From Thermoanaerobaculia bacterium (lineage in GTDB: Bacteria > Acidobacteriota > Thermoanaerobaculia > Gp7-AA8): 64,000 nucleotides of DNA. Every line of letters starts with the position of its first letter. Positions within the stretch are counted from its first letter, which is position 1. Under the pieces are notes generated by a model, which worked only from the letters and a program-made list of their open reading frames with translations, was not told the DNA's origin and did no database searches. Below, in pieces: positions 30,098 to 58,518 of the stretch. The position numbers were made by a program, and so were the translations under genes. Location: positions 13,212 through 77,211 of the forward strand of contig JBBRTE010000016.1 of assembly GCA_038244715.1 (NCBI GenBank), given 5' to 3'.

Positions 30098-30766
30098 CTA
30101 CGCCGACGCCTGTCCGGTGTCCTTCAGAATCGTCTGTCCTTTCACCAGCCAGGCGACGGCAAAGGCGACCACTGCCAGTGTCTCCGGCCAGAAGATCGGA
30201 AGACCGCTTTTCGTCAGCTGTGCGATCACGATCCCGACGCAGGCGATGGCCATGACCGCTCCGCACCCTTTGTAGATCCGGTTCCGCAGGATCTTGCGGT
30301 GACCCGGAATCTCGGGACCAAACGCGTCGAACCGGAAGTAGATCAGGTAGATGCAGATCGCAAAGAACGCCATCACGAAGTACATGTGGAAACCGAGCTG
30401 GCCGTGGATGATGTAGCACTTGTCGTTCTGATTCGGAAACCGCGCCAGAATCGATTTATCGAAGTTCGGATCCATGGGAAACAGACCGATTCCGATGCCG
30501 GCCAGTCCCGCGCCAACCGCCGCGATTCTGTCGCGTCGCGCCGGAGTGCGATAACAGGTGAGCAGAACACCGATGAGCACGAGCGTCGACACGAACACGT
30601 CGTGCATGCCGGTGTAGTAGTACGCGCTGATCGAGGCGCGACCCGAGATGTGCTCAATCTCGCGTGCGCCGATGCGTACGAGGAAGGGCATGATCAGTCC
30701 GATCCAGCCGATCATCTGCCGCAGGGTTAAATACGACACCACGAGTTCTTTGTCCGCTGGTTTCAT
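30098..30766 (-). CDS. hypothetical membrane protein
   Basis: Start at the internal Met MKPADKELVVSY; about 6 predicted TM helices. The N-terminal extension of the listed ORF is R/G-rich junk. Confidence 0.5.
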   Translation of the reverse strand: MKPADKELVVSYLTLRQMIGWIGLIMPFLVRIGAREIEHISGRASISAYYYTGMHDVFVSTLVLIGVLLTCYRTPARRDRIAAVGAGLAGIGIGLFPMDPNFDKSILARFPNQNDKCYIIHGQLGFHMYFVMAFFAICIYLIYFRFDAFGPEIPGHRKILRNRIYKGCGAVMAIACVGIVIAQLTKSGLPIFWPETLAVVAFAVAWLVKGQTILKDTGQASA

Positions 30767-30963
30767 CCTGCTGTCATCCTTTCCGAAGCGCACCCGTTCG
30801 CCCCCACACGCACACGACGATCCTCGGCACTCGCGACGCAAGCGGACGGTTCGTCGCCGAGGTGTGATGACAAAACGTGTTGGGGGCTCAAGGAAGGGAG
30901 GGTGCGCGGCACACGTCTTCCCTACCCATCCCAAGCACACGTTTCCGGTATTGTGCGATTGCG

Positions 30964-31605
30964 ATGGACGCGAGCGCCGACTCCCGCCGCCTCCCCACCT
31001 ACTTCCTCTGGTCATTCTGGATCGGCGTGGTGTTCTTTTCGATCTACCCGACGATGAACTGGGTTACCTCTCTGCGGGCGGCGCCCCTACATCTGTACGT
31101 CCCGCTCGAGCTGCGGATTCCGCTCCTGCCCTGGTTCATCTGGCCGTACCTATCCATGTACTTGCTGTTTGTGCTGCCCCCGTTTCTGATTCCGGCGGCG
31201 AACATGCCGGCGCTGGGGAAGCAACTCATCGCCGGGCCGGTGATCAGCGCGGTGATGTTTCTTATCCTCCCTGCGCAGCTCGGATTTGCGCGGGCGGTGC
31301 CGGTTCAGGAGCCTTACGCGTCCGTCTTCGCCGTCATGTTTCGTATTGATCGTCCGTACAATCTCGTTCCGTCGCTGCATGTGATCTTTTCGACGGCCAT
31401 CGCGATGGCGTGTGCCGATTTTGCGCGGCCGCTGGTGCGCATCGCGGTGCTGGTATGGCTCGTTTTCATCGTTTCGTCTACTGTTCTCGTTCATCAACAT
31501 CATCTGCTGGATGTGATCGCCGCGCTGGCGATCGTGGTTCTCCTGAGACGACGTTACGAGGTGCGCCCATGCGAAAGTGCCTACTCATCACCGGAATGCT
31601 GCTAG
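30964..31605 (+). CDS. PAP2 superfamily membrane phosphatase-like protein
   Basis: PSLHV (PSGH-like) and HQHHLLDV (SRxxxxxHxxxD-like) motifs in a polytopic membrane protein. Confidence 0.55.
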   Translation: MDASADSRRLPTYFLWSFWIGVVFFSIYPTMNWVTSLRAAPLHLYVPLELRIPLLPWFIWPYLSMYLLFVLPPFLIPAANMPALGKQLIAGPVISAVMFLILPAQLGFARAVPVQEPYASVFAVMFRIDRPYNLVPSLHVIFSTAIAMACADFARPLVRIAVLVWLVFIVSSTVLVHQHHLLDVIAALAIVVLLRRRYEVRPCESAYSSPECC

Positions 31606-32183
31606 CCCTCCCCCTCTTTGCCACGGATTCATCGGTTGGTGAATCCGATCATGAGATTCATCAGGAACTGCGCGGCGTGCTCACGACCGTGGAGCATGCC
31701 ATCAACACGGGAACGTTCGACGCGATGCTGCCTGTCATCAGCAGCGATATCCGGGCCACGACGATCACGCAGGAAATGATGTCGACGCGGCCCGAGGTGT
31801 CGGCGTACTTCAAGAAGTGGTTCGGGAAGGGCGGGTTTCTCAAGAAGCTCGACATGCACTTCAACGCGGACACGCTGACCGAGCTCTCACCGGACAAGAC
31901 CTGGGGCATCGTTCGCGGCTCGGGCATCGAGAACTACACGTTGTCGGATGGGCGCTTCTATCCGATGAAGACGCGCTGGACTGCGGTGCTGCGCAAGGAG
32001 GCGGACGGGCACTGGCGGCTCCGCGCGATCCACATCGGCACGAACTTCCTCGACAACCCGATCCTCGATGACGCGAAGCGCGCGGTCGTTCGTTATTCGA
32101 TCATTGGCGCATTGATCGGTCTGGCCGGCGGCCTCCCCCTAGGAATCTTCCTCGGCCGCAAACAGCGCGCGGCTCGCGGGTGA
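31569..32183 (+). CDS. secreted NTF2-like/DUF4440-like protein with C-terminal TM anchor
   Basis: Signal MRKCLLITGMLLALPLFA; ...GHWRLRAIHIGTNF; terminal hydrophobic IIGALIGLAGGLPLGIFLG. Confidence 0.45.
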   Translation: MRKCLLITGMLLALPLFATDSSVGESDHEIHQELRGVLTTVEHAINTGTFDAMLPVISSDIRATTITQEMMSTRPEVSAYFKKWFGKGGFLKKLDMHFNADTLTELSPDKTWGIVRGSGIENYTLSDGRFYPMKTRWTAVLRKEADGHWRLRAIHIGTNFLDNPILDDAKRAVVRYSIIGALIGLAGGLPLGIFLGRKQRAARG

Positions 32184-33065
32184 GCCCATCGGCGGCGCTG
32201 GCTGCACGCCATGCCGCCACAGGCTGACGTAGATCTGCCAGAACGACGGCTGCGCCGGATCGTCGTCGACGAGCTGCGGCAGCGCCGTCCACGGCGCGCC
32301 GGGATGGCTGTGATGCGCGAGGTGGTACTGATAGTTGAGCGTCAGCCAACGCACAGGCGCCGGAACGCGCAGGTTCCACGCACCGCGCTGCACGTCGCGC
32401 TCGCTCCAGGCGTGATCGACGTATTGCAGCGCCGACCAGTGCATCGCGAACAGCCAGTGCGCGAGGAGCCATCCCCGCCATTCCAGATGAAGGAGTCGCC
32501 AGAGCGCGACCTGGTAACCGAGCGCGCAGGCGACCTCGAGCCACACACGGAGCGGCGGGAGCTGCACGATGTCCTTGACGTGCTCGCCGAACCCGAGGCG
32601 GGGTGCGATGCGCTCGATGAACATTCGCGAGCGATAAAACGGCGTCGCGATGACGTAGAGCACGTTCGACAACACGACGCAGAACCAGTAGAGGCCGAAG
32701 AGATTGCCCACGTAAAGCATGACATTCCGCCTCAGCCTCGACTCGCCCGGCAGGTAGTAGTCGTAGAGATCCCGGTCCGTGCGGTTGCGCACGTGATGAC
32801 CGAGGTGCGCGGCGCGCTGCAAGGTGAAGGACGTGGGGAACATGCAGCTGGCGAGGAAACCGAAGAAATCGTTGCGACGACTCTTGGCCGACGCCACACC
32901 ATGCACTGCCTCGTGCATCAGCGCGAAGGGAACGTTGTTGATGAACGCGAACGCGATGCACGCCAGCAACACGACCCACCACACTCCGTGCGACGCGAGC
33001 CAGAGCGCCGCGGACGTAGCCAGCACGGCAGCTGCGAGAACGAGCCAGTTCAGGCGTTCTGGCAT
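32139..33065 (-). CDS. fatty acid desaturase family membrane protein
   Basis: Three His boxes HEAVHG, HLGHH and HLAHH. Start at internal Met MPERLNWLVLAAA. Confidence 0.8.
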   Translation of the reverse strand: MPERLNWLVLAAAVLATSAALWLASHGVWWVVLLACIAFAFINNVPFALMHEAVHGVASAKSRRNDFFGFLASCMFPTSFTLQRAAHLGHHVRNRTDRDLYDYYLPGESRLRRNVMLYVGNLFGLYWFCVVLSNVLYVIATPFYRSRMFIERIAPRLGFGEHVKDIVQLPPLRVWLEVACALGYQVALWRLLHLEWRGWLLAHWLFAMHWSALQYVDHAWSERDVQRGAWNLRVPAPVRWLTLNYQYHLAHHSHPGAPWTALPQLVDDDPAQPSFWQIYVSLWRHGVQPAPPMGSPASRALFAAEEDS

Positions 33066-33706
33066 TTCTTCAGCACCGGCCGCGTGCCCCAATGCCCGTG
33101 GCGGAGGATCGATTGGCCGATGTATCCGGCGGTCGGAACGATCAGTGAGAGCACGAGGATCATCGTAAAGGCGAGCGGAAACCAGCGTGCGTCGAGGATC
33201 TCCACCAGCGAGATGCCCGCGCCGTAGATCGCACCGAATCCTCCGAAGAACCACGGCGCGTAGTCGAGCGCGATATCGAGGTCTCGCCTACCGTCGGCCC
33301 ACGGCTGGTTATAGACGCGCAGGATTCCCGATTGCAGCGCCTTCACGTCATAGAGCAGGTTCACGAGGCCCAGGACGCAACAGAGAATGATGGCGTTGCG
33401 CGCTACGTCCCGGAGGTCGTGCGCCGGCTCGCCGTGCACGAGCCATCCCAGCATCGCCGTCGCGGAGCCAAAGACGAAGCCGTGATGCGGACGAAAGCGG
33501 CCGAGGCGCAGGCGGGTGTTGAGCTCCCAGACCTTGAGGACGTTCGTGCCGATACCCGGGATGATGTACGCCCAGAGAATCGGAATCAGCCACGCCACCG
33601 CGATCCGCTCGGGATGGTCCGCGTACTCGACGCGCCATAAGAGAAACGATAGCGGCGCGAGCGCGAGGGGCGCAGCGTACTGGTAGATCGATAGCGTCCG
33701 TTTCAT
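33050..33706 (-). CDS. hypothetical polytopic membrane protein
   Basis: Start at internal MKRTLSIYQYAAPLALAPLSF. ATGA overlap with the upstream rSAM. Confidence 0.5.
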   Translation of the reverse strand: MKRTLSIYQYAAPLALAPLSFLLWRVEYADHPERIAVAWLIPILWAYIIPGIGTNVLKVWELNTRLRLGRFRPHHGFVFGSATAMLGWLVHGEPAHDLRDVARNAIILCCVLGLVNLLYDVKALQSGILRVYNQPWADGRRDLDIALDYAPWFFGGFGAIYGAGISLVEILDARWFPLAFTMILVLSLIVPTAGYIGQSILRHGHWGTRPVLKKCQNA

Positions 33707-35034
33707 CGCAGTCCGAAGCGCATCCCGTGCTTCTTCGGGATCTCTTTCCTGAACAGTAGCGTGTACTTCCAGAACGCTCCCACCCGCGCGAGCGATCGCA
33801 GGTGCGTCTGGATATCTGCGAAGCGGTGGAAGAGCGACGGAATCGTGTTGAACCGTGTCCGCGCGGCGTGGCATGCGTCGGTCAGCTCCTGCGGCGTCAT
33901 CAACTTCGGCACGAACGCCGCGCCATTGAACCGGTACTGCGGATGCAGCCACCATTTCCCATCCCACAACAACCGTCCCTCGGCCTCCAGCTTGTTGTAG
34001 AGCGGAGTATTCGGATACGGCATCAGGATGTTGTACGCGGCCAGGGTGAAGCGGCTCTCCAGCGCGAAGTCGACGGTCGCTTCGATCGACTCCTTCGTGT
34101 CGTGGTCATAGCCGAGGGTGAAGGCCGCCCAGCTCTGCATGCCGTGCTCGCGGAGGATGCGCACTTCTTCCTTGTACTTCGTGAAGCGCGGCAGATTGGG
34201 TGCCTTCTTCGACTCGCGCAGGCTGTCGGCAGTGATCGTCTCGAAGCCGGTGACGTTGCCCCAGTTGCCGGCGCGCTCCAGGAGCTTCATGAGCGGCAGG
34301 TTCCGCGTGATGTCCAGGCTGGCCTGGCTGACCCAGTGCAGGTTCATCGGGATCAGTGCGTGGCAGAACTCAGCCAGCGCCTTCTGGTCGCTGGCGATGT
34401 TGTCGTCGATGAAAAAGATGAACTTGCGATCCTGCGCCTCGATCTCGCGGAGCACGTCGTCGATCGCGCGGTGATAGTGCTTTCTGTCGAAATACTGACT
34501 GACCGCGCAGAAGGTGCACGCGAAGCGACAGCCGCGCACGTACTGCATGAGCGTCAGCGGCAGGTAGCCCTTGCCTTTGAAGAGATCGCGGCGCGGGAGG
34601 ACGCGGCCGATCTGTCCGACGCCCGGCGGGCCAACGTAACGCGGCTTGAGCCGGTCGTACCGCGCATCGTCGACGACGTCGGCCCACACGGTCTCGGCAT
34701 CCCCGAGGAAGAGGCTGTCGGCGTGCTCCGCCGCTTCCTCAGGCAGCAGCGTGATGTGCATGCCGCCGAGGATGACGGGGACGCCGCGGAGGCGGTATTC
34801 GGCGGCGATCTCGTACGCACGGCGCGCGGTGTAGGTCTCGACGGTGATCGCTGCGAGGTCGGTCGGCTCGTCGAACGGGATCGACTCCATGCGATCGTCG
34901 TAGAGGACGCATTCGACGTCGGGGGGCGTGAGCCCGGCCAGCACCGCCAGCATCAGCGGCTCCATGCGCCCTTCGTCGACATAGAGACTGTGCTCCATAC
35001 GGCCGATGTTCGGCTTGATGAACGTAATCTTCAT
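33703..35034 (-). CDS. B12-binding domain radical SAM protein (class B rSAM, DUF4070-type C-terminus), paralog 1
   Basis: N-terminal B12-binding fold (VILGGMHITLLPEE), CRFACTFC radical SAM cluster, C-terminal LAAYNILMPYPNTPLY region. Confidence 0.85.
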   Translation of the reverse strand: MKITFIKPNIGRMEHSLYVDEGRMEPLMLAVLAGLTPPDVECVLYDDRMESIPFDEPTDLAAITVETYTARRAYEIAAEYRLRGVPVILGGMHITLLPEEAAEHADSLFLGDAETVWADVVDDARYDRLKPRYVGPPGVGQIGRVLPRRDLFKGKGYLPLTLMQYVRGCRFACTFCAVSQYFDRKHYHRAIDDVLREIEAQDRKFIFFIDDNIASDQKALAEFCHALIPMNLHWVSQASLDITRNLPLMKLLERAGNWGNVTGFETITADSLRESKKAPNLPRFTKYKEEVRILREHGMQSWAAFTLGYDHDTKESIEATVDFALESRFTLAAYNILMPYPNTPLYNKLEAEGRLLWDGKWWLHPQYRFNGAAFVPKLMTPQELTDACHAARTRFNTIPSLFHRFADIQTHLRSLARVGAFWKYTLLFRKEIPKKHGMRFGLR

Positions 35035-36332
35035 GCGCCGAGCCGCCGGTACTGTTTCTTGTAGATCTCGCGCCGGGAGATGACGTTGGCTACGGTGATC
35101 ATCCCGCGCCGGAACAACGAGAAATCCGTTTCCGCGCGCAACACACGATCGCTGATGGAGCGCCAGGTGTAGAAGCGGCGCTTCGCTTCGAATACGCCTT
35201 CGATCAACTCCTCGGGGCGCATGCCGCGCGGCTCGAAGATCGCATCTCCGTATCGGTATCCCGCGGTGAGCCACCACTCGGGCTTGAGTAGCCGCCCCTC
35301 CCGCATCAGGCGGTCGTACAGCGCCGAGCCGGGAGTGGGCGTGAGCGGATTGAAGTTGGCGAGCTCGAGACGGGACTCCAGCGCGAAATCGACGGTGCGG
35401 CTCATGCTGTCATTCGTGTCGGCGTCGTAGCCGAAGACGAACGTGCCGTAGATGCCGATGTTGCGTGCGTGCAGCGCGTGGACGACGCGCTCGTAGGAGC
35501 CGCTGACGCTGTTCCACGACTTGTTCATTTGCCGCAGACTGTCGAGGTTCAGTGACTCGAATCCGATGAGGACGAACTCGCACCCGGCGGCAGCCATCCG
35601 ATCGAGCAGCGACTCATCGCGCGCGACGTCGATGCTGATCTGACACGACCAGCGGCGTTTCATCGGCGTCAGCGCATCGAGGAGTGCCAGCAGTTCGGAT
35701 CGGCGTCCGAAGAGGTTGTCATCGACGAAGAAGATCAGTCGCCCCGAAGGCAGCGTCTCGATCTCCTCGATCAAGCCGTCGAGCGGCCGCACGCGCAAGT
35801 CCGTTCCGTAGAAACTGTGAATGGAGCAGAAGTCGCACGCGAAGCGGCAACCGCGCCCGTACTGCACCAGCTCGACCGGCGCGTAGTTCTTGCCACGATA
35901 GATCGAGCGGTCGAGCCTGTAGTCCGAGAGCGTTCGCTCATTGCCGCCGGAGTAGCGCGCATGGAGGTCACCGGCTGCGAAGTCCGCCAGAAGACGCTCC
36001 CACGACCCTTCCGCGTCGCCGATGACGACGGCATCCGCATGCAGCAGCGCTTCGTCTGGAAGGAAGGTCGGATGATAGCCACCCATGACGACCGGGACGC
36101 CGCGCGCGCGATAGGTGTCCGCGATCGCGTACGCACGATGGGCGGTGAAGGTCTCGACGCTGAGCGCGACGAGGTCGGCGCTCTCGTGCAACGGAACACG
36201 CTCCGCCTTCTCGTCGTAGAAGCGCACGTCCCATCCCGGCGCCCGCGCGGCGAGGATGCCCATCGCCAGCGGAGGCATCGCGTCCGACGAGCGATAGTCG
36301 CCGAGGTTCGGGCGGATGAGGGTGAGCCTCAC
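35031..36332 (-). CDS. B12-binding domain radical SAM protein, paralog 2
   Basis: VVMGGYHPTFLPDE, CRFACDFC, FNPLTPTPGSALY; ATGA coupling on both sides. Confidence 0.85.
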   Translation of the reverse strand: MRLTLIRPNLGDYRSSDAMPPLAMGILAARAPGWDVRFYDEKAERVPLHESADLVALSVETFTAHRAYAIADTYRARGVPVVMGGYHPTFLPDEALLHADAVVIGDAEGSWERLLADFAAGDLHARYSGGNERTLSDYRLDRSIYRGKNYAPVELVQYGRGCRFACDFCSIHSFYGTDLRVRPLDGLIEEIETLPSGRLIFFVDDNLFGRRSELLALLDALTPMKRRWSCQISIDVARDESLLDRMAAAGCEFVLIGFESLNLDSLRQMNKSWNSVSGSYERVVHALHARNIGIYGTFVFGYDADTNDSMSRTVDFALESRLELANFNPLTPTPGSALYDRLMREGRLLKPEWWLTAGYRYGDAIFEPRGMRPEELIEGVFEAKRRFYTWRSISDRVLRAETDFSLFRRGMITVANVISRREIYKKQYRRLGA

Positions 36333-37564
36333 AGCAGTGCCGCCTCCGGTTGCGCGGGAAGTTGCGAGATCTGTGGCGCGCCGGCCGCCTCGCCTCCGTT
36401 CTTTTCAACATTGCCGGCTCGGCAGTCCGCGGCTTCCGCGCCGAAAGCCCTCACCGGCGAGGCCGCCTGTCCTTCTCTCTCCACTTCGCCAGAATCTCCA
36501 CCGCGAGGTCCTTCTCCCCGCGCAGAGGGGAGAAGGTGGCCGACGGCCGGATGAGGGGCCGGGTCGGCTCCATTCAGCGGCGTGTCGTCGAAGGACACAG
36601 CGTAGATTCTTGCTGGATAGCTGACCGGTTTGAATCGCTCGAGCGCCTGCAGCAGCGGATGCCCCGCATGGAGTCCAATGCTGGCTGCCGGCGTCCGGCA
36701 ATGCGACAGCAAGTCCTGCATCAGCTCGTAGGCGCCTTCCCGTACCGATTCCGACATCGCCAGGAACGCGATGAACGTCTGGTCGAGCGCTCTTCCTTCG
36801 CGCGGCAACGGGATGCGACGCAGCGCGCGCGCATAGAGATTTCTGAACGGTAGAATAGTTCCGAGGGGACGCCGGTAACGCCGGGCCACGATCTGCTTGA
36901 ATGCGCGCTGGTCCCACAGCGCCGCCACGGCCCGCAACTCGCCCTCTCGCTCCGCCACGTAGAAGTCGAGGCGCCGAGCGAGAGCTGCGTCGAGGACTGG
37001 AGCGTATTGAAACCGCGCGGCCTGGCGATTGTGGAACGCCACGATCTCATCGGCATCCCCCTCTTCCGCGCGACGCCAGAGCCCGCGGTGTTTTCCCCGC
37101 GCGACCGCGAGTGCGAGCGTCCGGTACTCGCCCTGGAAGTGATACGGCGGAATCCCGGCGATACCGGACTCCAGCAGCCGTCGCGCAATGCGGTTCTCCG
37201 ATCCGACCACGGTGAACCAACACGGAACCTTTCTCGGCGCAAGCCGGGTGATGGATGCGTAGCCACCTCGCAGATGACGGATGCGCCGGCGGTGGGGAGG
37301 GTTCACGCGTAGGCCGCCGAGATACCCGAGCTCTTCGCGGCGTCCATTCAAATACGCCGGGATCATCGCCACCGTGTACATGCCCACGACGTCTCCGGCT
37401 TCTTCGGCGATGACGGCCCAGTCGCGACCGAAGAGATTCTCACCCGCGAAGAACGACGGCTCGCGCTCGATCGCCATCTCGACCCAGCCCGGCATTGCGT
37501 TGTCTCTCAGCATCGCCCGAATCTGCGCGTCATCCGCCTCGGTCGCGATCCGATACGTCGTCAT
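36329..37564 (-). CDS. tandem GNAT-fold acyltransferase-like protein; C-terminal ~80 aa is encoded by repeat copy C
   Basis: N-terminal RIATEADDAQIRAMLRDNAMPGWVEM... has a GNAT-like fold and there is a second similar half. The low-complexity tail GHLLPSARGEGPRGGDSGEVEREG... coincides with the dispersed repeat. Confidence 0.5.
   Translation of the reverse strand: MTTYRIATEADDAQIRAMLRDNAMPGWVEMAIEREPSFFAGENLFGRDWAVIAEEAGDVVGMYTVAMIPAYLNGRREELGYLGGLRVNPPHRRRIRHLRGGYASITRLAPRKVPCWFTVVGSENRIARRLLESGIAGIPPYHFQGEYRTLALAVARGKHRGLWRRAEEGDADEIVAFHNRQAARFQYAPVLDAALARRLDFYVAEREGELRAVAALWDQRAFKQIVARRYRRPLGTILPFRNLYARALRRIPLPREGRALDQTFIAFLAMSESVREGAYELMQDLLSHCRTPAASIGLHAGHPLLQALERFKPVSYPARIYAVSFDDTPLNGADPAPHPAVGHLLPSARGEGPRGGDSGEVEREGQAASPVRAFGAEAADCRAGNVEKNGGEAAGAPQISQLPAQPEAALL
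36502..36560. repeat. dispersed ~60-bp hairpin repeat, copy C (inside the 3' end of the GNAT-like ORF)
   Basis: Reverse complement GGCCCCTCATCCGGCCGTCGGCCACCTTCTCCCCTCTGCGCGGGGAGAAGGACCTCGCG. Perfect 10-bp stem CCTTCTCCCC/GGGGAGAAGG. Confidence 0.7.
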
Positions 37565-38907
37565 CGCACTTCCAGCAATTTGCCCTGCCAGGTCTCGTCG
37601 CCGAGGGGATGGCCATTCCGTTGCGAGATCTCGTTGCGGTGCATCGCGTTCACGATGAAAAAATTGCGGAGGACGAACGCGTCATGGAAATGGCGGGTGC
37701 TGCGCCGGGCGATGTTGGCCCAACCATAAAAACGACGGCGGGCGGAGACACAGCCGGCGGTCACATCCTCCGGCGTCATCCCCTTCGGGGCGAACGGCAC
37801 CGCGTTGTACCGATACTCCGGATCCAGCCACCATGCCTCGAAGCGCAGTCTCCCCTCGGCCTGCAGCCGTTTGTACAACGGCGTGCCCGGGAACGGAGTC
37901 AGGTGGTTGAACGCCGCGATGTACATCCCCTCCTCCGTTGCGAAGTCCACGGCCTGGTCGAACGACTGCAGCGTGTCGTGCTCGTAGCCGAAGATGAAGG
38001 TGCCGTAGACGAAGATGTGATTGCGGCGGAGATTGGCAAGAGCCTTTGTGAAGCCGCCCTTCATCGCGTTGAAGCGCTTGTTCATCAGCTTCAGGTTCTC
38101 CTCGTCGAGGCTCTCGAAGCCGATCAGAACGCCGCGGCAACCGGCTCGATACAACTCGGCGAGAAAGCCCTCGTCGTGGGCCGCGTCGATACTCATCTGC
38201 GTGATCCAGCGAATATTCAGCTTGCGCAGCTCTTCCAGAAGCGGCCGTCCCGATTGCAGTTCGCCGGCAAAGTTGTCGTCGACAAAGAAAAAGAGTTTCT
38301 TCTCGTCCTTGATCGATGTCAGCTCGCGGATGACGTCGTCGACCTCACGCCGCCGGTAGGTGCGCGAATAGAACGTCTGGATCGCGCAGAACTCGCATGG
38401 GAATCGGCACCCGCGACCCGTCTCGATGAGTCCGATGGGCAGGTAGCGCTTGTCGCGGAAGAGACGCCGGTCGACGCGAATCGTCGTCAGAGAGGGCTGA
38501 CCTCCCTGATAGCGGCGCTGCAGCGTTCCATGCTTCAAGTCGTCGATCACCCGCGCCCACACCCCCTCGGCCTCGCCGATGACGATTGCGTCTGCGAAGC
38601 GCGCGACTTCATCCGGCATCAGCGTGGCGTGGAAGCCGCCCATGATCACGGTGACGCCGCGCCGTCGGTACTCGCTGGCGATCTGGTAGGCGCGGGCCGC
38701 GGTGTAGGTCTCGATGGGGATGGCCACGGCATCCGTCGGCGCATCGAACCTGATCGGCTCCATCCGGTCGTCGTAGAACGCGACGTCGACATCCGCCGGC
38801 GTGAGACCGGCCAGGACGGCCACCGGCAACGATTCCATCTGCCAGGAGCGGACGTACTTCTCGCCTGCGCGGTGACCGACTGCCGGGTGGACGAACGTCA
38901 GCCGCAT
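37561..38907 (-). CDS. B12-binding domain radical SAM protein, paralog 3
   Basis: VIMGGFHATLMPDE, CRFPCEFC, FNHLTPFPGTPLY. Start at internal MRLTFVHPAVG. Confidence 0.85.
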   Translation of the reverse strand: MRLTFVHPAVGHRAGEKYVRSWQMESLPVAVLAGLTPADVDVAFYDDRMEPIRFDAPTDAVAIPIETYTAARAYQIASEYRRRGVTVIMGGFHATLMPDEVARFADAIVIGEAEGVWARVIDDLKHGTLQRRYQGGQPSLTTIRVDRRLFRDKRYLPIGLIETGRGCRFPCEFCAIQTFYSRTYRRREVDDVIRELTSIKDEKKLFFFVDDNFAGELQSGRPLLEELRKLNIRWITQMSIDAAHDEGFLAELYRAGCRGVLIGFESLDEENLKLMNKRFNAMKGGFTKALANLRRNHIFVYGTFIFGYEHDTLQSFDQAVDFATEEGMYIAAFNHLTPFPGTPLYKRLQAEGRLRFEAWWLDPEYRYNAVPFAPKGMTPEDVTAGCVSARRRFYGWANIARRSTRHFHDAFVLRNFFIVNAMHRNEISQRNGHPLGDETWQGKLLEVR

Positions 38908-40253
38908 ACGGTCTTGCTCATCACGGAGAGGTGCCAGTCGCAGTTGTAGAAGCGCTGCAGATGATGCGCGTAGAAGCGATAGCCGAGGTTCGCGGCGATC
39001 CCGAGAGGATCGAAGGCGCGAGCGCGCCACAGTCTCGAGGCGATGGACCGGTATCGATAGACCTTCTTCCACGCCACCTCGTGACCCGCCGAGAGTTGCT
39101 GCACGGTCATGTTGCGCGGCTGAAAGACAACATGTTGACCATCGTAGAGCTCCCAGTTGCGTGTGAGGATGCGGCCTTCACTCGCCAGCCGTTGGTGCAG
39201 CGGCGTTCCGGGAAAGGGCGTGAGGATCGCGAACCGCGGGAGGTCGATGGCGTTGTCGATCGCGAACGCCGCCGTGCTCTCGAAGACATCGAGGTGGTCG
39301 TGATCGAGGCCGAAGACGAAGCAGCCCTGGATGGCGATGCCGAGGTCGTGGAGATGGCGGATGAGCGAGGGATAGTCGACCGAACCGTTGAAGCGCTTAT
39401 TCGCATCACCGAGACTGCCGGGCGTAATGCTCTCGAGGCCGAGGAGGAGTCCGCGGCAACCGGAGCGGGCCATGAGCTCCATCAGATCGGGATCATGAGC
39501 GATGAGCACGGTCGACAGTCCGAACCAGCGCACCTTCAGCGGGATCATCGCGGTGAAAAGCTCGCGCGCGTAGGCCTTGTCCGCGACGAGATTCAGATCG
39601 ATGAAGAGGATGCGCTTCTGTCCGACGCGACGGATGTCTTCGACGACCCACGACACCGGCTTCTGAAACTGGCGACTTCCCCACGCGGTCGGCGCGATGC
39701 AGAACTCGCAGTCGTGACCGCAGGAGCGCGTGGCCTCAAAGACTGCCTGCGTCAGGAAACGCCTTCCGTCGAAGAGGTCGCGGCGCGCAAACGGCATGTC
39801 GCGCTCGAGCGAGAAATCGAGGGCCTGGCGGTACTCGGACTGGAGCTTTCTGTCGCGGAAGTCCAGCAGCAGTTTCGGCCAGGTATCTTCCGCGTATCCG
39901 ACCACGATCGCGTCGGCGTGACCGGCGGCTTCGTCGGGAACGAGCGTGACATGCGGTCCGCCCAGAACGACGGTCTTGCCCTCGGCGCGGAAACGTGCGG
40001 CCAGCGCGTACGCGCGTGGAGCCGTGCCGGTGATGACGGTCATCCCAACGAGATCGGCGTCGAGTTCGTCCGGAACGTCCTCGATGCCTTCGTCATAGAG
40101 CTTGATCGTCGCACCAAGGTCTGCCGGCACGAGTGCCGCGAGCGTGGTCAGCGTCAGCGGCTGATACCGAAGGGATTTGCGGAAGATTCCGTTGCGATGA
40201 CGGTAGAGGGGACCCTTGGGCGAGATCAGTGCGAGTTTCAAAGAGACCTCCAC
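38898..40253 (-). CDS. B12-binding domain radical SAM protein, paralog 4
   Basis: VVLGGPHVTLVPDE, CGHDCEFC, FAILTPFPGTPLH. Confidence 0.85.
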   Translation of the reverse strand: MEVSLKLALISPKGPLYRHRNGIFRKSLRYQPLTLTTLAALVPADLGATIKLYDEGIEDVPDELDADLVGMTVITGTAPRAYALAARFRAEGKTVVLGGPHVTLVPDEAAGHADAIVVGYAEDTWPKLLLDFRDRKLQSEYRQALDFSLERDMPFARRDLFDGRRFLTQAVFEATRSCGHDCEFCIAPTAWGSRQFQKPVSWVVEDIRRVGQKRILFIDLNLVADKAYARELFTAMIPLKVRWFGLSTVLIAHDPDLMELMARSGCRGLLLGLESITPGSLGDANKRFNGSVDYPSLIRHLHDLGIAIQGCFVFGLDHDHLDVFESTAAFAIDNAIDLPRFAILTPFPGTPLHQRLASEGRILTRNWELYDGQHVVFQPRNMTVQQLSAGHEVAWKKVYRYRSIASRLWRARAFDPLGIAANLGYRFYAHHLQRFYNCDWHLSVMSKTVCG

Positions 40254-41557
40254 GCGTGCAGAAGCACCGGTGGTTTGATGTCTCCGAGGCGCGCCCCACG
40301 CGCGAGCTCGGCGTCCAAAAAGCGTTCGTGCAAATCGTGCCGGGGGACCAGCCGACGCGGCCGGAGCTGACCAAGACCACGGGCGTACGCGTACTGAGGA
40401 TTGGCGCAGAGCCGCCTGTCGACGACGTCAACATCGACGTCCGAGTCCGACATCAACACGTATCCGCCCTCGTCCCGATCGGGGGAAAGGATGCGGAACC
40501 CGGGGACATCCTCGAGGCAGGCAGAGACAAACGTCTCCGTCAGTTTCTCTCCGACGAGGTCGGAGACCACACCGCTGCGGCCGATGAACTCGAGACCGTC
40601 CTCACAGCGCACGAGGTCCCCGGTGCGGTACCGGTACAAGCCACTAGCCGTGGTGACGATGACTTCGTAGGTTTCACCGCGAACCAACTCGTCCGAGAGG
40701 TAGAGCCGGCCATCGCGTTCGAACTCGAAGAACCCGTGCGACGTGAGTTGGGCTCGTCCCTTCGCATCGGGAACGGTCACCACGCACTCGGTCGAGATCA
40801 GTCCTTTCGGTTCCAGGTGCGCGTGAGGCAGGCGCTTCGCGAGCACGTCGAAAAAGGGGCGGGACGCACCACCGGCCCAGCAACTCACGACCTTGAGCCG
40901 CGGCCAGAGCCGGATCGGATCCGAGAGCCCGGGCTCGTCGAGCAAACGCAGGAGAAAGGTGGGACTCCAGACCGAGATCAGCTCGAGGTCGTCCGCTTCG
41001 GCGAGATGGCGAACGGTCGCGGACCGCCACTGGGCAACATCGGTGATCGCGGCCACGCTCAGGGGAACTGCGCTTCGTTGCATCACGACGGCTGCGGCCT
41101 CGGCGCTGAGGTACGCGCCATCGGGAAGGCCGAGCGGAATGCCGGCGACCGACTCGTGCGGGCGGGTGGCGGGGCTGATGGATAAATAGGCGCGGCCGGT
41201 GATCGCGTGGCGCCTCACGGTCTCGACAAGCCAGGGCAAAACGGCGCGCTGGAAATCGCGGAGGCCTTCCGCCGAGTACGGAATCAGTTTGGACGCCCTG
41301 GTGCTTCCGCTGGTCCGTTCCCAGGCGACGGGTCTCCCCGCGAAGAGGACGTCCGCTTCGCCGTCGATGATGCGATCGATCCACGGTTGCAGATCGTCGT
41401 ACGAGACCGGGGGAACGTTGACGCGGAAGTCGTGAAGGTTTCGCGGCGAACCCAACTGCCTCAGGTACTCACTATTTGCATTCGCCTCCAGCAGTGCCGG
41501 GAGCCAGTGCTCGGCCGAACGCGACGCGATCAGGCGGGCCCATGAGTCATCCGCCAT
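40238..41557 (-). CDS. GH3 family adenylate-forming amide synthetase-like protein
   Basis: SGSTRASKLIPYS (ATP/AMP motif SGTT-like), YRYRTGDLV, and overall GH3 auxin-responsive-promoter family layout. Confidence 0.7.
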   Translation of the reverse strand: MADDSWARLIASRSAEHWLPALLEANANSEYLRQLGSPRNLHDFRVNVPPVSYDDLQPWIDRIIDGEADVLFAGRPVAWERTSGSTRASKLIPYSAEGLRDFQRAVLPWLVETVRRHAITGRAYLSISPATRPHESVAGIPLGLPDGAYLSAEAAAVVMQRSAVPLSVAAITDVAQWRSATVRHLAEADDLELISVWSPTFLLRLLDEPGLSDPIRLWPRLKVVSCWAGGASRPFFDVLAKRLPHAHLEPKGLISTECVVTVPDAKGRAQLTSHGFFEFERDGRLYLSDELVRGETYEVIVTTASGLYRYRTGDLVRCEDGLEFIGRSGVVSDLVGEKLTETFVSACLEDVPGFRILSPDRDEGGYVLMSDSDVDVDVVDRRLCANPQYAYARGLGQLRPRRLVPRHDLHERFLDAELARGARLGDIKPPVLLHAWRSL

Positions 41558-42266
41558 TGGCGTGTTTCCCGAACAGCTTTAACGTCAGGCTCTTCATGTT
41601 GTGCGGTTCGAGCTCGCAAAGGCAGACCAGTTCGTGGCCGCGCCGAAAGCCGGGATTGCGGGAGAGGAAGAATCGTACGTCGTCCCTGTCGAGGTCCGCC
41701 GGCCTCGGCGACGCGATCTCGCTCTTGAGATGACCGCGGGAGCGGCGAAACTCGACCACGCCGGTGGCCGGGTTGTAGTCGTGGGGAAACATCTCCTTCG
41801 CCAGCACATCAGCGAGCGGCTTCAAATCGCTGCGGTCGACATTCCAGTGCGGATAGAACGATTTTCCGAACAACGGCAGATAGCGAAACGTCCGGTGCCC
41901 TTTGACCAGCAGAAGCCAGTAGATGAGAAGGTCTGGCCGCTCGCGCTTGAGCTCACCCATGCGCGTGATCCAGTCGAAGGCGAGCGCCTGCTGTCCCCAG
42001 TGTGCGCGGTCGACGATGGTATCGCCGGAGTAGACGATGCGGATCGTGCGCGACTGCCACTCGCGCTCGAAGAATCGCATCGTCGTGAAGCCGACCAGCC
42101 GGTCCGCCTCATGAACGAGGAGAACCTCATCCTTCTTCGCCAGATCAGAGAGGAATAACTCTTCGTCAGTCCCGTCGTAGTTGGCGAGGTAGAGGCCAGC
42201 CATCTCGCGTTTCAGCGCTTCGGTCAACGCTGATGCCGCGGCGAACGACGTCGTGTATGCAGTCAT
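41547..42266 (-). CDS. GNAT-fold N-acyl amino acid synthase / autoinducer-synthase-like protein (FeeM-like)
   Basis: 239 aa; ...LLVHEADRLVGFTTMRFFEREW...RIVYSGDTIVDRAHWGQ... resembles the LuxI-like/FeeM GNAT branch. First gene of the overlapping operon. Confidence 0.45.
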   Translation of the reverse strand: MTAYTTSFAAASALTEALKREMAGLYLANYDGTDEELFLSDLAKKDEVLLVHEADRLVGFTTMRFFEREWQSRTIRIVYSGDTIVDRAHWGQQALAFDWITRMGELKRERPDLLIYWLLLVKGHRTFRYLPLFGKSFYPHWNVDRSDLKPLADVLAKEMFPHDYNPATGVVEFRRSRGHLKSEIASPRPADLDRDDVRFFLSRNPGFRRGHELVCLCELEPHNMKSLTLKLFGKHANGG

Positions 42267-42336
42267 ACCTTCCGCTGGTGGCGAAGACTAAAAATACCAC
42301 GGCGTCGCGGTGTGGCGGAGGTCCTTCCGCAAAGCC

Positions 42337-43501: not shown

Positions 43502-43793
43502 TTCCGAAGCGCGCCTGGCGGCGCTGGAGGAGGTGTTCCGGGCACTGGCGCACCTCGCCCGCCGCCAGATTCTTCTGACGATGCACTTCCGCGGCGACCA
43601 GATGACGGCGGGTGAGATCGCGGGGCGCTTCGCTCACTCGTGGCCGACCACCACGCGCCATATCCGCGTCCTGGAACTGGCAGGCCTGATCACGCAGACG
43701 AGGAGCGGCCGGGAACGGATCTACCGTCTCGACCGCGACCGTCTGGCGATGGTCAATGAGTGGCTGGGGTGGTTTGAGAAGGCGCCGGAGTAG
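43485..43793 (+). CDS. ArsR/SmtB family transcriptional regulator
   Basis: Winged-helix HTH region QMTAGEIAGRFAHSWPTTTRHIRVLELAGLI. Confidence 0.8.
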   Translation: MPRKLSSEARLAALEEVFRALAHLARRQILLTMHFRGDQMTAGEIAGRFAHSWPTTTRHIRVLELAGLITQTRSGRERIYRLDRDRLAMVNEWLGWFEKAPE

Positions 43794-45528
43794 CGGCCAG
43801 CTTCAGGCCGGTCGCCTGTTCGATCTCGGTCGGATCGTCGAGCAGAATCCAGGTCAGGATCGCCACCGGTAGCGACCCGTTGGCGATGAGATCGTCATGG
43901 AACTGGCCGAGCCGGAACGAGGATCCCTTCGCATCGCGGTAGCGGCCGAGAAGCCGCATGATCTGCCACTTGCCGGTGATGTAGCTGATTTTCTGCGTCG
44001 GTGAGGACGCAGCTCCGGCCGCCTCCCCTTCCGCCGCTTCCTTGTCGAGGCCACCGCCGTCCATGAAGTATTCGACCGCGCGCTCGAACGGCCAGCGACC
44101 CGTGTGCAAGTTGACGTCGACGCCGATCCGCGCGGCGCGGTATCGCGAGAGGCGCAATACCTGCGCGGCGCCAGCCGACTCCGGCGGATACATCCCCTCG
44201 CGCACCAGCATCTCCTCCGTGTACAACGCCCATCCCTCGACGAACACGTTCTCGCCGTGATGCCGGCGGATCTCGTTCTTCAGGTGATTGGCGATCGACA
44301 GCTGGAGGAAATGTCCCGGAATCCCTTCGTGGCCGAGAATGGGACGGGGGTCTTCGATCGCGGCGCGGATGTAGAAGTTGTGACTCTGCGGGTTGTACGT
44401 CGGGATGAAGTAGAAGCCGCCGTCGTCCGCGTCGTAGATGCCGGGCGGATTCATGAATCCCCCCGGACTGGTCGGCTTGAATGCCTCGGGAAGCTGGCGG
44501 ATCTGAAACGAGCCGAGGTACGGCGGGAGCGTGACGAGATTCCTGGCCTTGAGAAAGTCGATCATCTCCTGCTCACGGCCTTCGTACGCGGCGAGGAACG
44601 CCTGCTGATCGGCAGGGATGTTCTTGACGCGCGCCGGATTGGGATCCGCGAGCGAGGGATCGATGAGCATCGCCTCGAGCGCGCGATAGCGGCCCAGCTC
44701 GACCTCGCCGAGGTGAGCGACGTCGCGCGAATCCATAGGCAGGAGGAGGATGTGCCGAAGCATGTAGTTGTAGTTCGCTTCGCCCATCGGTTTCCATGGG
44801 GTCATCTGCGGGAGGCGTTTCTCGAGCCAGTCCGCGAACCCGTGGATGGAGGCGACCGCTTCCTCCCGCGCTGCGTCGAGGGATGTTCGCTCCTCGGCCG
44901 AGAGATCGCCGGCGATCGTCATGAGGCTCGAGGAAAAGAGCGGATCGATGGAGCGCGCCGAGTCGATGGCCAGCTGGGCGTAGAGGCGGACCGGATTCTT
45001 CAGATTGCGCTGACCCTGTTCCATCATGGCCGGCATCGCCTTGAGGCGCGCCGTCGCGGCGAGCGCGCGCGTACGCGCCGGTGCGTAGTCTTTCTTCAGG
45101 AGCGAAAAGATCGCGTTGCTGGCCTCCCCAACATAGACCTGCGGATCGGTTTCCTCCGGCTTCTGAACGCGTTCCGGGAAGTCGTCGCGCTCGAGCTGCG
45201 AGCGGAAGAGGAGCCAGTCGATGATGTCGTCCTTCGCCCATCCGCTGACGTTCGCGGCACGCATGCGATCGAGCAGGCTGCGGACGTGAGCGGCATTCCG
45301 CGCGATGGCCGCAGGCGAGAAATCGTCGAGCTTGTCATCGGCCGCGTGAAAACCCTGATCGCTGGCGGTAACTGGATAGACCTGTTTCTGCCATTCGTAG
45401 TAATCGTGCGCGATCGTACGCACCTCGGCAGGAGTCAACGGTGCCTCCTTCGCAACGGGCTTTTTCGGAGCGCCGAATCCAGAGACGGCGACGAGCAGGA
45501 TGAAGGCGACGGCAGCGGTGCGTTTCAT
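43753..45528 (-). CDS. DUF885 family exported protein (putative metallopeptidase-like, HExxxH)
   Basis: Signal peptide MKRTAAVAFILLVAVSGFGA; ILGHEGIPGHFLQ motif; ~590 aa, typical for DUF885. Confidence 0.7.
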   Translation of the reverse strand: MKRTAAVAFILLVAVSGFGAPKKPVAKEAPLTPAEVRTIAHDYYEWQKQVYPVTASDQGFHAADDKLDDFSPAAIARNAAHVRSLLDRMRAANVSGWAKDDIIDWLLFRSQLERDDFPERVQKPEETDPQVYVGEASNAIFSLLKKDYAPARTRALAATARLKAMPAMMEQGQRNLKNPVRLYAQLAIDSARSIDPLFSSSLMTIAGDLSAEERTSLDAAREEAVASIHGFADWLEKRLPQMTPWKPMGEANYNYMLRHILLLPMDSRDVAHLGEVELGRYRALEAMLIDPSLADPNPARVKNIPADQQAFLAAYEGREQEMIDFLKARNLVTLPPYLGSFQIRQLPEAFKPTSPGGFMNPPGIYDADDGGFYFIPTYNPQSHNFYIRAAIEDPRPILGHEGIPGHFLQLSIANHLKNEIRRHHGENVFVEGWALYTEEMLVREGMYPPESAGAAQVLRLSRYRAARIGVDVNLHTGRWPFERAVEYFMDGGGLDKEAAEGEAAGAASSPTQKISYITGKWQIMRLLGRYRDAKGSSFRLGQFHDDLIANGSLPVAILTWILLDDPTEIEQATGLKLAATPAPSQTTPATH

Positions 45529-45665
45529 GCGCGGGAGTGTAACGCGGCTCGTGCACCCGCTTTGCAGCGGATCACCGGCATGACCGACAAGGAAGAGCCG
45601 CAGAGCTACGGAAGCCAGGACGAGGGCGTGGCCGGCAAGACCGCCTGACGGGAAGAAGTAGCCGA

Positions 45666-46061
45666 TCAGCGCTCTCCGGCGGTCCACTTCTCGGACACCG
45701 CGCGGCCTTTGGCGAGATCATCGACGACCAGGATCAGCTGATGATCGTGATCGGAGTAGAGCACCTCGATATTGACGCCGGCGTCCGCCATCTTCCGCGC
45801 GAGCTTCCCCAGCTGTCCGGGCTCGTCCTGGTTGAGCCGTTGCACGACGACGTCATTCACCGACGCGACCTCGATGCCTGCCGCGGTGAGCGCCGCCCGT
45901 GCCGCCTCCCCGTCGTGCACGAGGAAGTGCGCGATCCCGCGGCCTTCGACCACCCACGCGCCGCCGCCCTCGACGCTGACGCCAGCCCGGCCGAGCACCT
46001 CGCCCATCCCGGCGAGTGCGCCGGGGCGATCTGCGAGCGTGATCGCCAGATCCTTCATCAT
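45666..46061 (-). CDS. ACT domain protein
   Basis: Two short ACT-like beta-alpha-beta-beta-alpha-beta units (MMKDLAITLADRPGALAGMGEVL..., RLNQDEPGQLGKLARKMADAGVNIEVLY). Confidence 0.55.
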   Translation of the reverse strand: MMKDLAITLADRPGALAGMGEVLGRAGVSVEGGGAWVVEGRGIAHFLVHDGEAARAALTAAGIEVASVNDVVVQRLNQDEPGQLGKLARKMADAGVNIEVLYSDHDHQLILVVDDLAKGRAVSEKWTAGER

Positions 46062-47278
46062 TCGTAGCGCAGTGCTTCGATCGGATCGAGTTTCGAGGCC
46101 TTCGCCGCCGGATAGATTCCGAAGATGATGCCGAGCACCGCGCAGAACGTGAAGGCAAGCACGATGGCCCACAGCGGCGTGTGAACCGGAGGAAGCTCGA
46201 TCCAACGTTTCAGCACCAGCCTCACCAGCGCCGCAGCTCCGTAGCCTCCGGCGATACCGATGCATCCCCCCAGACCGGACAGCGTGACCGCCTCGATAAG
46301 GAACTGGATCATGACGTCGTAGCGCCGCGCACCGATGGCTTTGCGGATCCCGATCTCGCGCGTCCGCTCCGTTACCGAGACCAGCATGATGTTCATGATG
46401 CCGATCCCGCCGACGAGGAGCGCAATCCCGACGACGGCCCCCATGATGCCGGTGGTGGTGTTGAGGATCGTGGAGATCGTCTTCATCAGTTCTTCCTGCG
46501 ACGTGATCTGGAAGTCGTCCGGCTGCCCTTTCTTCAGATGATGCCGGGTGCGCAGGATCTCGCGGACCTGCTCCTTCGCGAGGTCGATGTCATCACGCGT
46601 GCGAACCTGCAATGCGATCGGAATGTGCTGCATTCGATCGGGCCCGTAGAGCATCTGCGCCGTCGCGAATGGGATGTAGACCACGTCGTCGGGATCGCCG
46701 CCGACCGAAGAACCGCGCTTCTCCATGACGCCGACGACGGTGAAGTTGTTGTCGTCGAGCCGGATGTCCTTGCCGACCGCGTCGATCAGTCCCAGCTGGC
46801 GTGCGGCCTCGCTGCCGAGAACCGCGACGCGCTTCTTGGCCTCCTCGTCGAGGGTGCCGAAGAAGCGCCCGTGGTCGACGAACTGCTTGGCGACATCGGG
46901 ATAGCTCTGGTTGACCCCATAGAGCGTGGCATCGTGGCGCGTGTCTCCGTTTTTCAGCGAGACGTTCGAGATGAAGAGAGGCGTGAAATCGCGGATCGCC
47001 GTCGCCCGCTGCCGCACGGCCACCGCGTCGTCATACGTCAGCGACGGCACCGGGAGGAACGGGTTTCCACGGGCCGCCGAGAAATCGGGAACGACCCGGA
47101 CGAACGTCGCTCCCACATTCTCGAGCTGACTGGAGATCTGGTACTGCATCCCCTGCACGAGGGAGACGACGGCGATGACCGCGGCCACTCCGATCATCAC
47201 GCCGAGCGTGGTGAGGATCGAGCGCATCTTGTTGGCGCCGATGGCACGGAGAGCGATCTTTACGTTTTCGAAAAACAT
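46058..47278 (-). CDS. ABC transporter permease, MacB/FtsX family
   Basis: N-terminal TM, large periplasmic domain, C-terminal FtsX 3-TM region ending KLDPIEALRYE. Confidence 0.85.
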   Translation of the reverse strand: MFFENVKIALRAIGANKMRSILTTLGVMIGVAAVIAVVSLVQGMQYQISSQLENVGATFVRVVPDFSAARGNPFLPVPSLTYDDAVAVRQRATAIRDFTPLFISNVSLKNGDTRHDATLYGVNQSYPDVAKQFVDHGRFFGTLDEEAKKRVAVLGSEAARQLGLIDAVGKDIRLDDNNFTVVGVMEKRGSSVGGDPDDVVYIPFATAQMLYGPDRMQHIPIALQVRTRDDIDLAKEQVREILRTRHHLKKGQPDDFQITSQEELMKTISTILNTTTGIMGAVVGIALLVGGIGIMNIMLVSVTERTREIGIRKAIGARRYDVMIQFLIEAVTLSGLGGCIGIAGGYGAAALVRLVLKRWIELPPVHTPLWAIVLAFTFCAVLGIIFGIYPAAKASKLDPIEALRYE

Positions 47279-47332
47279 CGGCGTCGAGTCTACGTGATAC
47301 GGCGGCGGGCAGGAACGGTTTCGGACTCGCCC

Positions 47333-52570: not shown

Positions 52571-52573
52571 GGC

Positions 52574-54316: not shown

Positions 54317-54466
54317 GTAAACCCTCCTGGACACGCCTCTTCTACGCAACACCATCTTGATTGTTTCGGGCGCGCGTCACTCCACAGCGACGCCCGAAAG
54401 GACGCGATTTGGCGCGCATTGTAGTCTGCACACCCTACGTTTGACGCCGGGAAACGTCGAATGTCG

Positions 54467-55516: not shown

Positions 55517-55540
55517 GACCGGGCTTCTCCGTTTGAAACC

Positions 55541-56683: not shown

Positions 56684-56785
56684 GCGCTCCGGGGCTTCCG
56701 AGAGGCTGACCCGTCTGGCCGTTGGCGATCGTCGGATGCTCAGTCACGCGAGTTGGAATCGTAGCAAGAATGGTGTCAGCACGCG

Positions 56786-58450: not shown

Positions 58451-58518
58451 CGCTGATGAGGCGCGCGAAGCCTATTGCGGAATTCGCGCCTGAACCGCGC
58501 GGTACCATACCGCGACCC

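Follow-up and report, generated by a model that had tools for sequence, protein, structure and literature searches.

Nine overlapping genes on one strand

The 64,000-nucleotide (nt) stretch of DNA analysed here (the window; positions 13,212 to 77,211 of contig JBBRTE010000016.1, assembly GCA_038244715.1, from a Thermoanaerobaculia bacterium) contains nine genes, named G1 to G9, which are all carried on the minus strand and follow one another without a break from position 42266 down to 32139, with a coding-type base composition at third codon positions (GC3). They encode a single GCN5-related N-acetyltransferase (GNAT)-fold protein, a GH3-type enzyme, four B12-binding radical S-adenosylmethionine enzymes (rSAMs), a tandem-GNAT protein, a polytopic membrane protein and a desaturase-family enzyme (Table 1). 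An earlier note, made on this DNA from the sequence alone, had described an overlapping run of ten minus-strand genes between 32139 and 42266, with overlaps of 4–16 nt, and had considered translational coupling likely. The run and its overlaps are borne out by the open reading frames (ORFs) and by gene starts picked to agree with the positions where homolog alignments begin, but only nine genes are counted, which is also what the list in that note adds up to. From G1 to G9, successive genes overlap by 11, 4, 10, 4, 4, 4, 4 and 16 nt and four junctions show start/stop overlaps of the ATGA, GTGA or TTGA type, in agreement with translational coupling.

The G2/G3 overlap is 4 nt with a TTG start of G3 at 40241 and 16 nt with the GTG start of the longest ORF at 40253. 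The TTG codon is the likely start: it lies in a TTGA overlap, a GGAGG is found 7–11 nt upstream and homologs align from residue 5. G6 starts in a GTGA overlap, with its GGAGG Shine-Dalgarno sequence inside the tail of G5. Upstream of G1, a 70-nt gap holds a terminator-like hairpin that is likely the 5' boundary of the operon; terminator-like sites in total are not above shuffled expectation, which makes the hairpin weak boundary evidence. Together with the upstream glyoxalase gene, which is not conserved at related loci, it nevertheless places the boundaries where they had first been drawn. A lack of conservation had been named in advance as an observation that would count against the operon. 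The order of all nine genes in fact recurs at no fewer than 10 other loci representing three phyla or classes, and the cluster is also carried by a plasmid; given this recurrence the locus is, far beyond chance, a genuine, tightly packed and conserved operon.

Table 1. Positions of the operon genes and of adjacent features in the window
Feature	Position	Strand	Description
G1	41547..42266	-	GNAT-fold acyltransferase, 239 amino acids, outside any named family; leading gene of the operon
G2	40238..41557	-	GH3-type ATP-dependent acyl acid amido synthetase, compact, 439 amino acids
G3	38898..40241	-	B12-binding rSAM paralog 1; PF02310, PF04055 and PF13282 above threshold; CGHDCEFC
G4	37561..38907	-	B12-binding rSAM paralog 2; PF04055 6.7e-15; CRFPCEFC
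G5	36329..37564	-	N-myristoyltransferase-like tandem GNAT, 411 amino acids; homologs ~345 amino acids
G6	35031..36332	-	B12-binding rSAM paralog 3; PF04055 and PF02310 above threshold; CRFACDFC
G7	33703..35034	-	B12-binding rSAM paralog 4; PF04055 2.6e-10; CRFACTFC
G8	33050..33706	-	polytopic membrane protein, 218 amino acids, orphan family
G9	32139..33065	-	membrane di-iron FA_desaturase-family enzyme; His boxes HEAVH, HLGHH, HLAHH
SnoaL/NTF2-like gene	31569..32183 (approx.)	+	signal peptide, C-terminal membrane anchor; PF13474 22 bits
PAP2-superfamily membrane protein gene	30964..31605 (approx.)	+	sub-threshold PAP2, PAP2_3 and PAP2_C matches
Terminator-like hairpin and T-run	42296..42311	-	between upstream glyoxalase gene and G1

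Enzymes of the operon and flanking genes

G2 matched PF03321 (2.8e-33, 115.9 bits, cut-off 23.6) and the GH3_M domain PF23571 (1.3e-10, 41.7 bits, cut-off 23.6). Plant GH3 structures were recovered with E-values from 4e-16 to 1e-9, the best value being that of AtGH3.15, to which TSGSTRASKLIP and GLYRYRTGD of G2 align. The nucleotide-binding motifs (P-loop-like TSGST..KLIP and YRxGD) are intact, and the GH3 assignment given to G2 in the earlier note is confirmed.

G1 has a GNAT fold and its best Foldseek matches are aminoglycoside 2'-N-acetyltransferases. Nothing in Pfam matched it at E ≤ 0.01, and neither PF13444 nor PF00765 was found; the label of FeeM/LuxI-like N-acyl synthase given by the earlier note is over-specific, as G1 shares no more than the GNAT fold with FeeM/NAS and LuxI/LasI. 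For G5, an AlphaFold2 model with a predicted local distance difference test score (pLDDT) of 79 was compared with the PDB by Foldseek. The top 50 matches were all N-myristoyltransferases (NMTs; E ~4e-12, TM ~0.5), with alignments spanning ~360–400 columns, and the model consists of two fused GNAT domains in the NMT topology, as expected for the tandem-GNAT protein that had been predicted. G5 thus resembles the eukaryotic NMTs, which are long-chain acyl-CoA:amine N-acyltransferases; unlike them it is bacterial and operon-encoded, with 9–12% identity and no NMT Pfam domain. Its sequence did not place it in NMT families, matches to PF13527 (25.7 bits) and PF00583 were borderline, and a profile search against the PDB reached NMT at E ~1. 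Sequence searches of the PDB with G1, G5, G8 and G9 gave no match.

G5 also contains an insertion of ~65 amino acids (36374..36571, minus strand; residues 332–397) which is rich in Gly, Ala, Glu and Pro, of low complexity and predicted to be disordered (pLDDT < 50). It is missing from the ~345-amino-acid homologs, which retain the C-terminal QPEAALL. The DNA for this invariant tail (36329-36352) holds the GGAGG and the GTGA overlap of G6, and the conservation of QPEAALL may be due to this translational-coupling signal and not to protein function.

G3, G4, G6 and G7 are paralogs with 34–44% pairwise identity over their full length. All four have Radical_SAM and B12-binding domains, with an intact CxxxCxxC motif and PF04055 above threshold. 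PF02310 was above threshold in G3 (45.4 bits) and G6 (40.3) and sub-threshold in G4 (28.1) and G7 (21.1), and DUF4070 (PF13282) was above threshold in G3 and G4 (24 bits) only, sub-threshold in G7 and absent from G6. The common layout first claimed for the four proteins is thus right as to paralogy and CxxxCxxC, but a DUF4070-type C-terminus is supported in G3 and G4 alone. In a neighbour-joining tree of 52 rSAMs, they fall into four clean orthologous groups, one each for G3, G4, G6 and G7, which span phyla; G7 is the most conserved gene of the operon, with 88–91% identity in Thermoanaerobaculia. The three cysteines of CxxxCxxC are the only ones universally conserved across the 52 homologs, and these rSAMs therefore have no auxiliary-cluster motif.

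NCBIfam model scores served as a proxy for family placement of the rSAMs. The best scores were obtained with HpnJ and BchE, and PhpK, HpnR and the ladderane rSAM model were level with them, all at 65–95 bits against cut-offs of 360–650. Scores for HpnP/HpnR, TsrM, PhpK/Fom3-type enzymes, BchE, HpnJ and the ladderane model TIGR04072 were all below the curated cut-offs. Features that the paralogs share with class B rSAMs (HpnP/HpnR, Gmm, GrsA/B, HpnJ, BchE, PhpK and TIGR04072) are an N-terminal B12-binding Rossmann domain and a CxxxCxxC core, with a DUF4070-type C-terminus in G3 and G4 and no auxiliary-cluster cysteines in any of them. Unlike the named class B families, they make up a family of their own with four conserved orthologous groups. 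All equivalog scores are 5- to 10-fold below their cut-offs, and methylating families (PhpK, HpnR) score about as poorly as non-methylating ones (HpnJ, BchE).

G9 matched PF00487 (2.4e-29, 103.3 bits) and its translation has the three His boxes, as anticipated for a fatty-acid desaturase; no NCBIfam equivalog was found and matches to CrtR/CrtW were weak. An exhaustive HMMER search among 1.84 billion proteins yielded 188 representatives of the G8 family. G8 itself had no Pfam, NCBIfam or PDB match, and 33 members of its family gave scattered single-member Pfam matches far below significance.

The SnoaL-like gene on the plus strand is convergent with G9, the 3' ends overlapping by 45 nt (32139-32183). 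It adjoins the desaturase gene at 12 related loci, rSAM-less ones included, and on the Citrobacter plasmid described below. The Polaromonas locus (L013) has a SnoaL-like gene on either side of the desaturase gene, both overlapping it on the same strand. The PAP2-like gene is likewise a conserved neighbour, at 10 loci and on the plasmid, whether rSAM genes are present or not. Across nine PAP2-like orthologs, NLVPSLH and HQHHxLD are invariant, so that the catalytic His and His/Asp are kept, whereas the C1 motif KxxxxxxRP is not conserved; the Citrobacter ortholog bears the PGAP name 'phosphatase PAP2 family protein'. A PAP2 phosphatase and further membrane proteins had been placed on the opposite strand between 30098 and 32183. 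This is correct for the PAP2-like and SnoaL-like genes, which are on the plus strand and conserved, but the ORF at 30098-31015 is on the minus strand. The latter, weakly DUF998-like, is divergent from the PAP2-like gene, whose 5' end it overlaps; the true start of this ORF is probably internal. Genes for a DUF885 protein, an ABC permease of the MacB type and a TPR-repeat Ser/Thr kinase lie upstream of the operon, at 43753-49729. The glyoxalase, DUF885, PrsW and DUF998-like genes were considered as members of the cluster and rejected, as they are not conserved at related loci. The MacB-type permease and kinase genes were likewise not accepted as members.

Related loci and the variable number of radical SAM genes

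A scan of one genome per species recovered 33 related loci, and the nine operon proteins were mapped onto each. The nine-gene order was found in five Thermoanaerobaculia metagenome-assembled genomes (MAGs), with 73–91% (rSAMs), 56–63% (GH3) and 52–66% (G5) identity to the window, and also in MAGs from Propionivibrio, Comamonadaceae, unclassified Pseudomonadota and an alphaproteobacterium. An Accumulibacter contig has the same order up to the contig end after G6. The cluster is moreover carried, with a fifth rSAM gene and without G8, by the IncFIB/IncFII plasmid NZ_CP134684.1 of Citrobacter portucalensis 64A:C (51417-63512; L035). This plasmid is mobilizable and comes from a cultured isolate; PGAP names of the cluster genes are generic only. 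The fifth B12-rSAM is divergent (43% identical to G3) and its gene is paired with the desaturase gene on the opposite strand. Searches of E. coli genomes and other plasmids did not find the cluster beyond this single Citrobacter plasmid.

The G1-GH3-G5 trio is invariant across more than 30 loci while the rSAM count is 0, 2, 3, 4 or 5. The trio is therefore the core and the rSAMs are optional. Of the rSAM genes, loci of Opitutaceae and Erysipelotrichia keep G3 and G4 only (gene order G3-G4-G5-G1-GH3), and three are present at a Vicinamibacterales locus. G3-G4-G5 forms a conserved block across loci. rSAM-less G1-GH3-G5 loci occur in Polaromonas, other Burkholderiales, Burkholderia arboris, Lysobacteraceae, Neisseria and Alysiella, and most of them also carry desaturase, SnoaL-like and PAP2-like genes; the desaturase-family gene is kept at most loci, with or without rSAMs. 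G8 is present at the nine-gene four-rSAM loci; the Citrobacter plasmid lacks it, as do loci with 0–3 rSAMs. In a crude GH3 tree the rSAM-bearing loci do not form a single clade. The cluster is horizontally mobile and, judged from these sequence comparisons, the four rSAMs are an ancient, sub-functionalised and optional tailoring module.

Some loci encode additional proteins. Three rSAM-less loci (L013 12475-15231, L030 1107-3815 and L012 12096-15158) have a fusion of ~900 amino acids with RnfD/NqrB-like, FG-GAP and ASPIC/UnbV parts, and further encode a Rieske/VanA-type oxygenase and a ~200–270-amino-acid protein ('c13') upstream of G1. At three proteobacterial four-rSAM loci (L005 9331-11146, L008 12362-14138 and L017 18365-20348), an AurF-like di-iron oxygenase and a ~220-amino-acid protein are encoded between G8 and the desaturase. 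The RnfD-like/FG-GAP protein, the Rieske/VanA-type oxygenase, 'c13' and the AurF-like protein have no homolog within the window, and clustering of ORFs of at least 90 amino acids across loci revealed no further conserved gene. A distant G1-GH3-G5 trio (24–26% identity) was found in Acinetobacter baumannii X4-300 (L037 5221-12900; a 3.97 Mb record filed as a plasmid), where it is interleaved with genes for an HlyD-family protein, a major facilitator superfamily (MFS) transporter and an outer-membrane efflux protein. This position inside an efflux operon composed of membrane fusion protein, MFS transporter and outer-membrane factor fits an exported, amphiphilic small-molecule product.

A putative amide pathway and its alternatives

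Among characterised systems, the OlsH/OlsI ornithine-lipid pathway comes closest. OlsH of Singulisphaera acidiphila, the only characterised bacterial GH3, produces N-acyl-ornithine from a free fatty acid and ATP; it was in 2025 the first bacterial GH3 to be assigned a function, and its authors state that the substrates of many other bacterial GH3 homologs are unknown (PMC12493201). In both systems a bacterial GH3-like ATP-dependent amide synthetase with conserved nucleotide-binding motifs is encoded in a lipid-type operon. G2, which is ~85 amino acids shorter, is not an OlsH equivalog: it scored 25.4 bits against the cut-off of 620 of the OlsH model NF052613. The present operon also differs by the lack of an OlsI-type alpha/beta-hydrolase O-acyltransferase, no alpha/beta-hydrolase being found among the nine genes or in the flanks, and by the presence of two GNAT-fold acyltransferases, a desaturase, the PAP2-like and SnoaL-like proteins and four B12-rSAMs.

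A Pfam scan of the operon and its flanks found no fatty acid synthase, polyketide synthase, nonribosomal peptide synthetase or acyl carrier protein (ACP) genes in the operon; acyl chains would therefore derive from primary metabolism. Three amide-forming enzymes and membrane di-iron and PAP2-like enzymes, in an operon devoid of such genes, point to a small N-acyl amide amphiphile. From the gene content, folds, motifs, coupling, synteny and modularity of the rSAM genes observed at these loci, we infer that this mobile cluster makes a tailored N-acyl amide amphiphile resembling a lipoamino acid or a lipo-amine, and give this reading a probability of roughly 0.55. The uncharacterised lipid or N-acyl-amide pathway initially suggested for the locus remains, in view of the GH3 enzyme, the two GNAT-fold proteins, the desaturase and the rSAMs, its most economical explanation.

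In such a pathway, the NMT-like G5 and the single GNAT G1 would, according to their families, acylate amines, with acyl-CoA or acyl-ACP as the donor. A carboxylate would be adenylated by the GH3 enzyme and joined to an amine, making a further amide bond; it might belong to a free fatty acid, as in the OlsH reaction, or be the carboxyl group carried by an N-acyl amino acid. The di-iron G9, with the anchored SnoaL/NTF2-like protein, may desaturate or oxygenate the acyl chain at the membrane, and the PAP2-like His/His/Asp enzyme may remove or transfer a phosphate-containing group. The four rSAMs would be specialised, non-redundant tailoring enzymes acting at unactivated C-H positions of the amide scaffold. 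The G3/G4 pair, which travels with G5, would be the older part of this set, G6 and G7 having presumably been added later, together with G8 at the nine-gene loci.

Several observations weigh against this reading. G1 and G5 match fold families structurally only (TM ~0.4–0.55, identity 9–16%), and the Pfam scores of the PAP2-like protein, 17–21 bits, are below the cut-offs of ~27. GH3_C gave no Pfam match in G2, which has ~115 residues C-terminal to GH3_M and is ~100 amino acids shorter than OlsH or plant GH3s. Aromatic acids, too, are conjugated by GH3 enzymes, and the AurF-like and Rieske/VanA-like oxygenases encoded at some related loci could point to a non-lipid acid. The O2-dependent di-iron G9 and four O2-labile rSAMs are encoded in one coupled operon (32139-40241). 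Finally, the top family scores of the rSAMs include those of the non-methylating HpnJ and BchE.

This last point bears on the reaction of the rSAMs. A cobalamin domain without auxiliary-cluster cysteines is the architecture most often tied to methyl transfer, and because the four enzymes have this architecture, C-methylation is their most likely reaction. On the same amide scaffold, some or all of them might instead act on the acyl or head-group moiety by cyclisation, cross-linking, ring contraction or desaturation, chemistry that GrsA/B, BchE, HpnJ and the ladderane-cluster rSAMs are thought to perform. For three paralogs out of four the best NCBIfam score is that of HpnJ or BchE, the dehydratase AprD4, which does not methylate, is the best PDB sequence match, and four to five conserved orthologous groups exceed what most methylation pathways use, as single enzymes such as CysS and Gmm often iterate. 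The PhpK, HpnR and ApyD models score nearly as high, however, and the family-model scores, as sequence-based measures, do not separate methylases from non-methylases here. We consider non-methylating chemistry of some or all of the rSAMs the less likely case, though a serious one.

The operon could also remodel an existing envelope amine (aminophospholipid, lipid A sugar amine, polyamine or aminohopanoid) by N-acylation followed by tailoring. The aminoglycoside 2'-N-acetyltransferases matched by G1 act on sugar amines, the substrates of PAP2-like and membrane desaturase enzymes reside in the membrane, and weak SQS_PSY and sterol-monooxygenase-like (SdmA) neighbours are found at some rSAM-less loci. 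GH3 enzymes, by contrast, require both the carboxylate and the amine to be free, as is typical of de novo conjugation (PMC12493201). Plasmid carriage in Citrobacter and the efflux operon in A. baumannii also argue for a self-contained product, so that remodelling of an envelope amine is improbable.

The earlier note had linked the operon, speculatively, to the mid-chain methyl branches of membrane-spanning lipids in Acidobacteria, the four B12-rSAMs iteratively C-methylating the acyl chains of branched glycerol dialkyl glycerol tetraethers (brGDGTs) or iso-diabolic acid. Class B rSAM lipid methylases do exist (Gmm, HpnP and HpnR; PMC13459092). In addition, the nearest relatives of the window are Thermoanaerobaculia (Acidobacteriota) MAGs and one paralog scores 85 bits on the ladderane 'lipid biosynthesis B12-binding/radical SAM' model. 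Every rSAM score is nonetheless far under the family cut-offs, and ether-lipid or tetraether-synthase genes are absent next to the operon. The operon also occurs in Accumulibacter, Propionivibrio, Comamonadaceae, an alphaproteobacterium and on the Citrobacter plasmid, with related loci in Opitutaceae and Erysipelotrichia. None of the first five of these is a known brGDGT producer, and the distribution takes in Beta-, Alpha- and Gammaproteobacteria. The rSAMs are optional additions to a GNAT-GH3-GNAT amide-forming core: as Neisseria, Alysiella, Burkholderia, Polaromonas and Lysobacteraceae have loci with the trio and no rSAM, the rSAMs would tailor an amide product and not a bulk membrane lipid. 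The proposed link is thus not supported and is very unlikely to be correct; on present evidence the operon does not help with the question of brGDGT methylation.

Least plausible of all is the maturation of a lipidated, C-methylated ribosomally synthesised and post-translationally modified peptide (selidamide-, goadvionin- or polytheonamide-type) by GNAT N-acylation and B12-rSAM C-methylation: the NMT-like fold acts on peptide N-termini and the model of the peptide-modifying rSAM ApyD reaches 60–72 bits, but a precursor gene would find no space among the nine overlapping genes, the terminator-like hairpin is all that the 70-nt upstream gap contains, no other conserved gene appeared among the clustered ORFs of at least 90 amino acids, and the operon and flanks encode no protease or leader-recognition domain.

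Returning to the tailored N-acyl amide amphiphile, full-text searches of the literature found no description of a GNAT-GH3-rSAM cluster or of the Acinetobacter trio, and a review of rSAMs in lipid biosynthesis and a preprint on archaeal lipids are silent on it. A divergent GH3 in a conserved and self-contained context, with two acyltransferases and four to five cobalamin rSAMs, points to undescribed tailored amide lipids or signals. More tentatively, GNAT-GH3-tandem GNAT could be a widespread and unrecognised cassette for a new class of N-acyl amide lipids or amphiphiles in bacteria, its range extending from Acidobacteriota to Neisseriaceae, Burkholderia and A. baumannii. Here the four rSAMs would add several methyls or rings at unactivated carbons, and the resulting amide lipid, heavily branched or cyclised, would have no described counterpart; we regard this as a possibility worth stating and not as an expectation. 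The optional rSAM module makes natural variants with 0, 2, 3, 4 or 5 rSAMs available for comparison. A cobalamin pathway is known in some Citrobacter, and the plasmid copy in a cultured Citrobacter isolate would be experimentally tractable if that strain has one. If the pathway reading is true, the operon would bring new substrates and reactions to the class B radical SAM enzymes known to modify lipids, which are still few.

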